Sequence record: NC_055781.1
Strand: one strand, 5' to 3'
From: Escherichia phage p000v
Length of the DNA stretch: 64,000 nt
In this document: in pieces, positions 11,587 to 14,933 of the stretch
How positions within the stretch are numbered: position 1 is the stretch's first letter
How the letters are laid out: each line of letters opens with the position of its first letter
Position numbers and translations under genes: made by a program
The notes under the pieces: generated by a model
Seen by the model: the letters and a program-made list of their open reading frames with translations, nothing else
Databases searched by the model: none
Told to the model about the DNA's origin: nothing

Positions 11587-12102
11587 ATGAATATTCGTTT
11601 AGGCAGTACAATTACTAAGGGCTACGTAATTGATGTCACTACCTATGAAAATGATGGTGACAACTATAAAACCAAAACATTGTTTGAAGTGGAAGAACAT
11701 GAGCTCCAACAGTTTAAATATCTCTTGAAGAAATTTAAGAGCCGTCATTCTAGCACCAAAGCCGAACGCTATTGCGGTAATACACCATTCAGTGATTGCT
11801 CGCTTATTATCTACGAATATCTGGTTGAAGGACTGTTCTCAGACCAACTCCAACCGGAATTTATTAAAAAGGTCTTTGGTATCGAAGTAGACCTTGGTGA
11901 TAAATCTGAAGAAGACGAAGCCCGCGTATTCGACCTGTTCTTTGTGAAAGGCGATGAGATATCTCAAGGACTTATTGATATTCTTGGCTATGCTTCTGAA
12001 TACTATGATTACGATTTCTTGCGTGTAGTTGAACGTGTCGAATTTGCTTATATTGAAAAAGAAATTGTTTTGCCAACAGTTAAAATGGTTGATTTGCTTT
12101 AA
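11587..12102 (+). CDS. hypothetical acidic protein
   Basis: 171-aa ORF with SD; no motif recognised. Confidence 0.55.
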   Translation: MNIRLGSTITKGYVIDVTTYENDGDNYKTKTLFEVEEHELQQFKYLLKKFKSRHSSTKAERYCGNTPFSDCSLIIYEYLVEGLFSDQLQPEFIKKVFGIEVDLGDKSEEDEARVFDLFFVKGDEISQGLIDILGYASEYYDYDFLRVVERVEFAYIEKEIVLPTVKMVDLL

Positions 12103-12181
12103 GAATTATGTGTTATTATTAATTCATACCCTCTATTACCAAAGGTGCTCTAAAGTGCCTTTCATAATAGAAAGTTATTAA

Positions 12182-12253
12182 GGCCCTGTAGCTCAATGGG
12201 AGAGCTGTCAGCTCATAACTGATAGGTAGCTGGATCGAAACCAGCCAGGGCCA
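12182..12253 (+). tRNA. tRNA with CAU anticodon (elongator Met or Ile2-type); CCA not encoded
   Basis: Hand-folded cloverleaf: acceptor GGCCCTG/CAGGGCC, D-stem GCTC/GAGC, anticodon stem GTCAG/CTGAT with loop CTCATAA, T-stem GCTGG/CCAGC; 1-72 pair is G-C so not an initiator. Confidence 0.8.
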
Positions 12254-12294
12254 TATTTTGGGAACATAAATACTCTTAGAAATAGGAGATATTT

Positions 12295-12963
12295 ATGTTC
12301 CATTACACTTATAAAATAACAAATAAAATTAATAATAAAATCTATATAGGCGCTCATTCTACCGAAAATTTAGATGATGGATATATGGGTTCTGGTAAAT
12401 TATTAAAAAGAGCCCAAGACAAGTATGGTATAGAAAATTTTAATAAAGAAATTTTAGAATTCTTTGACACTAAAGAGCAGATGTTTGAAGCCGAGAAAAA
12501 TATCGTAAACGAAGAATTTTTGAATCGTTCTGACGTATATAATTTAAAACTTGGTGGCGAAGGTGGTTGGGACCATTTAAATACTTACGAATTTAATTAT
12601 AAAAAGAAAGAAGCCTCTATTAAAGGAGCCAAAGCTTTTAAAGAGAGATTTGATTCTGATGAAGTGCTTCAAGAAAAATATCGTAAAATGGGTTCAGAGA
12701 AATTAAAGCATCTGTGGACTTTACCTGAATACAGAGAAAAATTCTCTAGCACTAAGTCGTTTTTAAATAAAAATCATACTTCCGAAACTATTGCTAAAAT
12801 GAAAGATACCCACGCCAGGAACAAACACCAACAAGGCGAGAAAAATTCCCAGTTTGGTACTATGTGGATTCATTCATTAGAAGAAAAGAAATCTAAGAAA
12901 ATTAAGAAAACCGATCCTATTCCGGAAGGTTGGATTAAAGGCTATAAACTAAAATTTAAGTGA
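12295..12963 (+). CDS. GIY-YIG homing endonuclease (SegB-like, tRNA region)
   Basis: YKITNKINNKIYIGAHS...GSGKL GIY-YIG motif; adjacent to tRNA as T4 segB. Confidence 0.85.
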   Translation: MFHYTYKITNKINNKIYIGAHSTENLDDGYMGSGKLLKRAQDKYGIENFNKEILEFFDTKEQMFEAEKNIVNEEFLNRSDVYNLKLGGEGGWDHLNTYEFNYKKKEASIKGAKAFKERFDSDEVLQEKYRKMGSEKLKHLWTLPEYREKFSSTKSFLNKNHTSETIAKMKDTHARNKHQQGEKNSQFGTMWIHSLEEKKSKKIKKTDPIPEGWIKGYKLKFK

Positions 12964-12970
12964 GGAAAAT

Positions 12971-13316
12971 ATGAAAGGTAATATTTATCTGGTAGTTCAT
13001 GATTTAACGTTTTATTTTAACGAACAGGATACAGTTATTTCGCGACCGGTTGATTAATTCATTATATCAACACGCTGATTACGTTTATTTCCAAAATGAA
13101 TTTGGCCATTGGAAGTTCCTTAAAAATCGTTCCGGGTTAACTAGTTTTGAATACTTTGACCGTAAAGACCTTTTAAACGAAATTCCATTGCAACATCGGT
13201 TCCAGAAACGCGAATCATTATATTATTGCCGTCATATACCAAACGCAGAATGTGCCAATGAAGCGATTAATCTATGGCGTAGACGTAGAGAACAAATTGA
13301 TGATATGCCAAAATAA
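12971..13316 (+). pseudogene. possible frameshifted gene (28-codon ORF with strong SD, then 88-codon frame lacking ATG)
   Basis: ATG 12971 with GAGGA SD opens a 28-codon frame ending 13057; an overlapping frame is open from 13008 to 13316 with no ATG; T-rich run at 13011-13020. Confidence 0.35.
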
Positions 13317-13617
13317 GAAGCCGGGTCGCTACCGGCAAGACGTCGGACTGATGTTCCCTGGGTAAGGACTGGTCTTAATAAATCTTTACGATTTGTTAAT
13401 ATCCCCTTACATCACAGCAGAAACGGCGCGCAGAATTATCGATTCGAGGAAATATCTTTGCCGTAAGCCGAGTAGCGTTTTTGACGGAACGTTCGGATAT
13501 GGTCGAGATATGGCCTTTTAAAAATATTGAGTAGCGTCAACTGCTTAATAACCGGGTTCGAATCCCGGCGTTTCGTACAAACACTTACCTAGTAGGTGGA
13601 AACCCCGACAAGGTATA
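13317..13617 (+). ncRNA. candidate stable small RNA(s) with tRNA-like 3' element (analogous to T4 RNA C/D region)
   Basis: 300-bp ORF-free stretch beside tRNA/seg locus; T-arm-like CCGGGTTCGAATCCCGG (13552-13568) plus acceptor-like pairing CGGAACG/CGTTTCG; ends at strong terminator. Confidence 0.3.
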
Positions 13618-13647
13618 AAGCCCCTTCCGAAAGGTTGGGGCTTTTTT
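13618..13647 (+). terminator. intrinsic terminator
   Basis: Stem AAGCCCC/GGGGCTT followed by TTTTTT. Confidence 0.8.
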
Positions 13648-13648
13648 G

Positions 13649-13656
13649 TATAAATA
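13649..13656 (+). promoter_or_regulatory. T4-type late promoter TATAAATA
   Basis: Exact TATAAATA 36 nt upstream of CTS protein gene at 13692. Confidence 0.6.
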
Positions 13657-13691
13657 TAGTAAACAATAAACCTACTTTCTAAGGACCATCG

Positions 13692-14318
13692 ATGTATACT
13701 TTTAATGAATTTTTAGCCGAAACGGAAGTAATCACCGAAGCCGGTGTACGTATGACAAAAGAGAAATGGCAAGCTGCTTACGATGCTATTTCTGGTACAA
13801 AAACTAGTACAGAGTTTTTCAAAAACGTTCAAGCCATGTACGGTATCGACACTTCCAGCCAAAAAGAATATTACAGAGCTTCTAAAGCATTCAAAGATAT
13901 TGTTAGTGGTGGTGTTTCTGCTAAATCTGGTTCGCCTAAAGTAAAACCTGCTCCTACCATTCCTAAACCTGCGACCCCTAAAGCAATAGCAAAACCTGAG
14001 CCTAAGCCTGAAGTAAAAGCAACTCCTAAAGCTCCTGCTCTTAAGTTTGATACTTCTAGCCTGGAAAAAAAATATAGACAACTATCTTCGCTTGTTCGTG
14101 ATATTGAATCCGATACATCTTCACTCGTTCGTGAATTCAATAGTCTTCGTAATGGCCAACATATCAACAACCTTGATACCCCAGACCTTTATCGTCTTTA
14201 TTTGACTATCGAAGGTTTGAAGTATACTCAACCACTTCATGATGAGATTAAAGAAAAACTTCGACAAGCAGGTCGTTTGGCTGCTGACGCTGCTCAGTAT
14301 GCAAAAACTCGTAAGTAA
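13692..14318 (+). CDS. capsid-targeted protein (CTS-like leader MYTFNEFLAE) with Pro/Lys-rich linker
   Basis: N-terminus resembles internal-protein leader; PKxKPAPTIPKPATPK repeat region; late promoter upstream. Confidence 0.7.
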   Translation: MYTFNEFLAETEVITEAGVRMTKEKWQAAYDAISGTKTSTEFFKNVQAMYGIDTSSQKEYYRASKAFKDIVSGGVSAKSGSPKVKPAPTIPKPATPKAIAKPEPKPEVKATPKAPALKFDTSSLEKKYRQLSSLVRDIESDTSSLVREFNSLRNGQHINNLDTPDLYRLYLTIEGLKYTQPLHDEIKEKLRQAGRLAADAAQYAKTRK

Positions 14319-14370
14319 AGAATGGGGACTTCGGTCCCCATTAGGGGGTCTATAACTTACTGAAAAAGTT

Positions 14371-14399
14371 GTTTACTTCTTCCCTAGATGTGTTACTAT
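14371..14399 (+). promoter_or_regulatory. early-type promoter (GTTTAC / TACTAT)
   Basis: 17-bp spacer; same cassette family as other early promoters in window. Confidence 0.55.
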
Positions 14400-14429
14400 A
14401 GAACCTATCAACAACATGAGGAAAATGTT

Positions 14430-14933
14430 ATGAGTCTTTACACTGAACTGAATAAAAAATCTGAAGAATCTGCTGAAACTATTTTTAAAAACGTGCAAAA
14501 GCGTATTTTAGAAAAGATGTATAACGCTGCATCTAAAGGTGAAAAATCTTGCCAGTTTCCGATGAGGTGTTCTTCTGATTTATGCGCAAATACTATTGAA
14601 TGGTTGGAAAGTGAAGGTCTTACAGTAGAGAAAAACCCGGCGACTTCTATTGACAGTGAATCATATATTAGTATTTCTTGGGATAAATCAAGGGTAGAAG
14701 AGAAAGATGGTGATTGGGTTGTAGATGTTAAAACTTCTGATGGTGGACGTTCTGTTGAAGTTTCAGCTGTAGTTAAAGGTACCCACGAACAAAGGACTTG
14801 GGGCTGGGGTGGTGAAGAAAAAGAAATTGTTCTTAGTGTGATTGCCAGGTCAACTAGTAATAAAATTGCACAAAGCATCATTGACGCTGCAATTGCTGAA
14901 GCAGAAAAAATTTGCAAAATTAAAAATAAATGA
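14430..14933 (+). CDS. hypothetical protein
   Basis: Start set at MSLYTELNKK (GAGGA SD, 7-nt spacing); 167 aa. Confidence 0.6.
   Translation: MSLYTELNKKSEESAETIFKNVQKRILEKMYNAASKGEKSCQFPMRCSSDLCANTIEWLESEGLTVEKNPATSIDSESYISISWDKSRVEEKDGDWVVDVKTSDGGRSVEVSAVVKGTHEQRTWGWGGEEKEIVLSVIARSTSNKIAQSIIDAAIAEAEKICKIKNK

Follow-up and report, generated by a model that had tools for sequence, protein, structure and literature searches.

The window analysed here, a stretch of 64,000 nucleotides from a T-even phage, contains a short ORF of 28 codons that opens behind an ideal ribosome binding site and is overlapped, in another frame, by a much longer ORF that lacks a proper start. Is such a split reading frame a decayed gene, a sequencing indel or a programmed frameshift, the three options raised in the first-pass annotation, or does it represent two genuinely separate small genes? 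We consider it probable that the two frames are the parts of one gene of phrog_3355, an accessory family of the Tevenvirinae (114-121 aa), and that this gene was broken by a real, recent and strain-specific insertion of a single base.

The locus and its reading frames

The window belongs to the genus Mosigvirus, with Escherichia phages LF82-4 and FP43 and Shigella phage ESh15 as the best nucleotide matches (96-97%), and the locus lies within the T4-type block ipI / trna.4-.2 / tRNA genes / segB / rnaD-rnaC. Searches of phages, plasmids and E. coli genomes gave no match of 100%. The following features were identified:

12182-12253, plus strand: tRNA-Met, the only tRNA gene in the window (tRNA search; Rfam)
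12295-12963, plus strand: gene of a predicted SegB-type GIY-YIG homing endonuclease (76% amino-acid identity to T4 SegB, 221 aa full length; phrog_314)
12962-12966, plus strand: Shine-Dalgarno sequence GAGGA of the split gene (direct reading of the letters), overlapping the stop codon of the segB-like gene
12971-13057, plus strand: N-terminal remnant, with codons 1-24 native (MKGNIYLVVHDLTFYFNEQDTVIS), followed by four out-of-frame codons (RPVD) and TAA
13042, plus strand: the lesion, one inserted G (TTTC-CGACC in relatives, TTTCGCGACC in the window; alignments)
13043-13316, plus strand: the C-terminal 90 codons, now in the +1 frame, which is open from 13008
13311-13614, plus strand: homologue of the T4 stable RNA genes rnaD and rnaC (90.9% nucleotide identity to T4 71,053-71,171 / 70,908-71,046)

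The layout that had been described before, an ATG with a GAGGA element that opens a 28-codon ORF and an overlapping frame of 88 codons, was confirmed by direct reading and by the ORF listing. The GAGGA overlaps the TGA stop of the upstream gene (12961-12963) and is followed by a spacer of 4 nt, the ATG (12971-12973), 28 sense codons and TAA (13055-13057); the start region, AAGTGAGGAAAATATG, is kept in relatives whether or not they have the homing endonuclease gene, as seen in the DNA alignment. The second frame is +1 with respect to the first (13050 - 12971 = 79 = 3 x 26 + 1) and is free of stops from 13008, after the TAA at 13005-13007, up to the TAA at 13314-13316. A run of 102 stop-free codons is hardly expected by chance in this sequence of 37% GC (P ~8e-4, with a stop frequency of 0.067 over all plus-strand frames). 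In the ORF listing the second frame appears as 88 codons with TTG 13050 as start, and this is the only upstream start-like codon of the C-terminal part; it lacks a Shine-Dalgarno sequence and overlaps the stop of the first ORF (TTGATTAA). The frame was said to be without any ATG, and this holds for usable starts: one ATG does occur, at 13305-13307, where it is the third-last codon and useless as a start.

One gene in the relatives examined

When G13042 is deleted, the encoded protein of 114 residues matches the phrog_3355 profile end to end (positions 1-113 of 114 against 1-115 of 117, E 2.8e-50), in line with the earlier prediction that a single-base shift within 13008-13057 would fuse the frames into a protein of ~115 aa. 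Shigella phage ESh15 encodes an intact protein (URY11253.1) to which the repaired one is identical at every residue (100%). A tblastn search recovered 424 phage records, all of which match the protein at one place with a coverage of 80% or more; in each of the 60 rows listed out of these 424 records the alignment was in a single piece. The relatives annotate one CDS here, of 345-363 nt (114-121 codons), in the place of the 28 + 88 codons in two frames that are found in the window; the two separate and conserved small ORFs that would have spoken against a split gene were thus not encountered in the related phages. By its sequence, the window copy is a disrupted allele of phrog_3355 with a 1-nt insertion.

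This small family, of 13 clusters at 90% identity, comprises T4-like phages only, with intact orthologues in Mosigvirus, in Tequatrovirus (T2, BBF63298.1) and in more distant Tevenvirinae (Gravdalen, PM2). In relatives and in the window alike the gene is located directly downstream of the tRNA array, and in the window it directly precedes the rnaD/rnaC homologues. On the basis of its position, after tRNA-Arg and before the genes of the RNA species, the family member of phage T2L is probably the 'trna.2 ORF' that was described there; according to the map in PMC2330249 the gene lies just before the stable RNA genes in T2, as it does in the window. The window allele thus shares with the intact phrog_3355 genes and the T2L 'trna.2 ORF' the full-length sequence family, the Shine-Dalgarno sequence and the site just after the last tRNA gene, but the insertion that follows codon 24 keeps it from producing the full-length protein, and its upstream neighbour is the SegB gene instead of tRNA-Arg.

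The intact gene is clearly under purifying selection, judging from pairwise dN/dS values of 0.02-0.12 over the full length, which are low both upstream and downstream of the lesion. Between the repaired window allele and the ESh15 allele there are 12 synonymous and no non-synonymous differences; therefore the gene does not appear to have decayed since it was broken, and the break should be very recent. Of the options proposed before, the decayed gene comes closest, as the gene is indeed broken, although this same count of differences leaves no sign of further decay. The gene is, in addition, a recombination mosaic over 12952-13300, being LF82-4-like (and linked to the endonuclease) up to ~13117, ESh15-like at 13134-13280 and similar to 308Ecol101PP and phage 55 at 13281-13292.

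No Pfam domain was found in the repaired protein by a Pfam search and no sequence relative of it in the PDB, while the structure matches of its AlphaFold model (pLDDT 76.7) in BFVD were uncharacterised proteins of T4-like phages only. The fold of this model opens with two beta-strands, formed by residues 3-17, and of the four strands in the predicted core sheet two come from the 24 native residues of the first ORF. From the model, neither fragment would be expected to fold alone.

A single extra base

Alignment with three and later with eight relatives revealed exactly one extra base in the window: G13042, within TTTC[G]CGACC, which is inserted after codon 24 and is absent from all eight aligned relatives. 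Where these read GTT ATT TCC GAC CGG TTG, the window reads GTT ATT TCG CGA CCG GTT GAT TAA. The site sequence without the extra G is TTTCCGACC, and the uninserted 34-mer is present in 41 phage records. The T-rich run at 13010-13018 had been pointed to as a likely place of the shift. The lesion lies inside 13008-13057 and outside this run, and slippage in the run was ruled out as the lesion: the run is identical in the relatives, all of which read it in frame as the conserved TFYFN.

The inserted G also turns TCCGA into a perfect palindrome, TCGCGA (an NruI site), that abuts a second palindrome, ACCGGT (window 13040-13050). Template-switch mutagenesis or even deliberate engineering might be behind this, although TCGCGA occurs 10 times in the window and the palindrome at the lesion may mean nothing. 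Ripley's work on T4 reportedly established templated frameshift mutagenesis, with which the TCGCGA palindrome would fit. Frameshift mutations of the rII type are classic in T4, and insertions templated by quasi-palindromes are known as well. The present allele resembles spontaneous frameshift alleles of non-essential T-even genes in its 1-base insertion, its early termination and the dispensability of the gene; in comparison to quasi-palindrome-templated insertions the palindrome is only 6 bp long, and the likeness is one of sequence alone.

Sequencing error or genuine mutation

Single-base indels are a classic artefact, and an extra G introduced by base calling or in the consensus would mean that the phage itself carries an intact gene of 114 codons. 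Such an error would agree with the identity of the repaired protein to a real protein, with no further damage, and with the search for the insertion-bearing 24-, 26- and 30-mers, which had no match in 50,697 phage records, IMG/VR, a JGI scan and the GTDB genomes; these scans were non-exhaustive, as the JGI contig Ga0307490_1000886, in which the pattern is present, was missed. The second ORF was not on record as a called gene in a database look-up. The site itself argues against an error because it is not a homopolymer (TC[G]CG), and so does the quality of the surrounding sequence. We listed all indels that are not a multiple of three in the ~55 kb that could be aligned to FP43 and checked each of them by hand against the CDS tables of FP43. 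Only G13042 was an isolated indel within an annotated CDS, which speaks against a noisy platform, and the remaining ones were intergenic or formed compensated pairs in divergent stretches. This comparison rules out a generally poor or frameshift-ridden assembly.

More direct evidence came from metagenome assemblies. An exact look-up of the downstream 208-aa protein led to three short contigs: ENA ERZ27315293 k141_97346, JGI 3300031253 Ga0307490_1000886 and one of Logan SRR8862896. Over window 12337-14593/14611 (2.26 kb) the first two, of ENA and JGI, agree with the window at 100% identity and without a gap, and the insertion-bearing 24-mer is present in both; the Logan contig is 100% identical over 13219-14611 and stops short of the insertion. 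Between the window and the nearest isolates the difference in this region is 2.5-3%, as against the 100% identity of the contigs over 3.8 kb, which means that the same strain was seen again, with the same G. The ENA contigs (MEGAHIT) have untrimmed Nextera adapters at both ends and must for that reason derive from Illumina short reads, so that the same base is present in short-read contigs from two other pipelines.

In the ENA, JGI 3300031253 and Logan SRR8862896 data the strain is present only as pieces of 1.4-2.4 kb with shared end points, and these shared ends suggest that one low-coverage read set passed through three pipelines. Positions 12274-12336 are uncovered in both the ENA and the JGI assembly and are spanned by the window; since these assemblies leave that gap, the 64-kb window, which has none, probably stems from other data. 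The independence of the contigs, probably one read set, from the source of the window is what we infer here rather than a proven fact. Taken together, it is very likely that the insertion is a genuine property of the DNA of this strain, and an error, including the sequencing indel that had been suggested before and that the identical short-read contigs with the same G speak against, is unlikely.

Could the broken gene still be expressed?

A real insertion might yet be bypassed by the ribosome, and the geometry of the locus offers some room for this: the second ORF is in the +1 frame and the overlap at 13008-13057 is open in both frames. A programmed +1 shift (or other recoding) that skips C13043 after UCG would restore exactly the wild-type protein, as a shift at UCG-C-GAC recreates ...VIS-DRLINS. 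The tRNA-Ser on UCG, however, cannot re-pair on CGC, and the following CGA is not a rare codon (97 uses, or 6.1 per 1000 codons, in the long ORFs of the window). The GAU-UAA at the stop cannot re-pair either. The UUU-U at 13010-13013 could slip by +1, but at the usual background rate, with a common codon (UAU) next to it and with the replacement of 11 conserved residues. The only Shine-Dalgarno-like element, AGGA at 13026-13029, is located 10 nt upstream of the UCG, compared to ~3 nt in prfB, and there is no stable RNA structure: the 121 nt from 13000 to 13120 fold no better than shuffled sequence (z = +0.58). Transcriptional slippage would require an A/T run of sufficient length, which is lacking. 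A -1 frameshift, the common type in phages, would reach the wrong frame; with the second ORF in the +1 frame and this fold, the locus does not conform to the shifts of the G/GT and dnaX type, in which the downstream ORF lies in the -1 frame and an X XXY YYZ heptamer is followed by a structure. The locus is similar to prfB (RF2) in the +1 direction and in the short overlap that ends at a stop codon, but it has no conservation of the shift, no re-pairing P-site codon followed by a slow A-site codon in a CUU-UGA-like slippery/stop context, no Shine-Dalgarno-like stimulator at the correct spacing of ~3 nt and no autoregulatory logic. In all relatives examined a single frame encodes the protein. 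The programmed frameshift of the first-pass annotation thus finds no counterpart in any relative examined, nor a +1 slippery or hungry-codon context or a stimulatory structure at the site itself, and we regard it as highly improbable.

Ribosomes that stop at the UAA (13055-13057) might instead reinitiate at the overlapping UUG 13050 (UUGAUUAA), which would yield a functional split gene whose products, the 28-aa N-terminal peptide and an 88-aa C-terminal fragment, contain all but residues 25-26 and associate non-covalently. In favour of this are the overlap of a start-like codon with the stop, and the fact that the N-terminal piece is a discrete beta-hairpin in the model. Split genes with reassembling products are moreover known from T4-like phages, namely T4 gp39/gp60 and the NrdA of Aeh1. 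Like the locus discussed here, T4 gene 39/60 and the nrdA of Aeromonas phage Aeh1 (split by mobE) are single genes in relatives that occur as two adjacent ORFs beside a homing endonuclease gene. In those cases, however, the split involves inserted DNA and start signals for each of the parts and is fixed in the lineage, whereas here it is due to a frameshift of 1 nt that lies 79 nt past the end of the endonuclease gene, and the gene is intact in phages with the same endonuclease protein. UUG is also a weak start that is not preceded by a Shine-Dalgarno-like sequence (GCGACCGG). The hairpin makes up half of the strands of the core sheet, and each fragment alone would probably misfold, as far as the model (pLDDT 76.7) can be relied upon. 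The arrangement was found in no relative examined and nothing suggests that it is selected for. Reinitiation into a working split protein is very unlikely, if somewhat less so than recoding, and the chance that the broken gene is still expressed by either route, +1 recoding at UCG-C-GAC or reinitiation at UUGAUUAA, is slight. If one of them were true, the 'pseudogene' would be a natural split or recoded allele that is kept in a circulating strain.

The preferred reading, a recent insertion in a single phrog_3355 gene, leads to the following sequence of events. A single G was inserted after codon 24 (13042) in this strain. Ribosomes that start at the strong Shine-Dalgarno sequence and ATG would then translate 24 native and four wrong codons and stop at 13055-13057. 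The remaining 90 codons, in the +1 frame and without a proper start, would stay essentially untranslated, and the full-length protein, presumably together with its function, would be lost. The mutation may have been tolerated because the gene is probably dispensable in this phage. The feature is an ordinary frameshift mutation and not a case of programmed recoding.

Genomic surroundings

The upstream gene starts 41 nt downstream of tRNA-Met, within the tRNA gene cluster, and its product matches the GIY-YIG domain PF01541 with 29 bits (cut-off 22.6); this identifies it as a SegB-type homing endonuclease, with an activity that is predicted only. In window 12254-12951 the SegB gene replaces exactly the tRNA-Arg that the endonuclease-free Mosigviruses have between tRNA-Met and the phrog_3355 gene. 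On the other side, the homologue of rnaD (species 2) and rnaC (species 1) starts at the very stop codon that ends the split gene. A search of 12000-13800 against Rfam returned tRNA-Met alone and no family for rnaD/rnaC, and a scan for promoters and terminators gave nothing above the shuffled expectation.

We also asked whether SegB homing had left the insertion behind as a scar, or whether it marks a junction of recombination, and rejected both. The mosaic breakpoints are at least ~70 nt away from 13042, the gene is intact in LF82-4 and in three more contigs that encode the identical endonuclease, and the SegB motif does not occur at 13042, the nearest being at 13556. This latter site, the tRNA T-loop-like GTTCGAATC in the stable-RNA stretch, matches the published SegB cleavage motif RAWTSGAAC (PMC13096335).

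Elsewhere in the block, between the trna.2-like gene and tRNA-Met, we observed an ORF of 171 aa (11587-12102, phrog_2290) that is present in FP43, 308Ecol101PP and ESh15 and absent from LF82-4 and T4; by this distribution it is another variable accessory gene of the block.

Repeated loss of a conserved gene

The phrog_3355 gene is absent from T4, where tRNA-Arg directly abuts rnaD. The tRNA region of T2L contains the ORFs 'trna.1' and 'trna.2' (Brok-Volchanskaya et al., PMC2330249), and the latter was lost, through SegB homing, in 99.6% of the viable progeny of a cross between T4 and T2L; the region was reported not to be essential for phage development (PMC2330249).

A frameshift in the same gene that is independent of the one in the window was observed in a contig of Logan SRR23364229 (117,770 bp; locus 2501-2915), where a run of five A is shortened to four (A5 to A4) at ...FLKNRSG..., with a product of 72 aa as called. 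This contig also has a deletion of ~8 kb just after the gene, which joins the equivalents of window positions 13336 and 21204, near the lysozyme gene.

Because the gene is absent from T4, was lost in the T4 x T2L progeny and is separately frameshifted in the SRR23364229 contig, we take it to be dispensable, presumably in this phage as well; its loss may nevertheless carry a cost, given the clear purifying selection in the relatives.

For annotation this means that the locus should be described as one frameshifted gene (a pseudogene, or a disrupted allele of phrog_3355) and not as two small ORFs or as a recoding site. The insertion would leave ~260 nt untranslated just upstream of rnaD/rnaC, and a polar effect on these genes is possible. 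With two frameshifts, in the window and in SRR23364229, and its absence from T4, phrog_3355 is a conserved gene that has been lost repeatedly, and this repeated loss marks it as a candidate for an accessory function specific to certain hosts or for one in defence.
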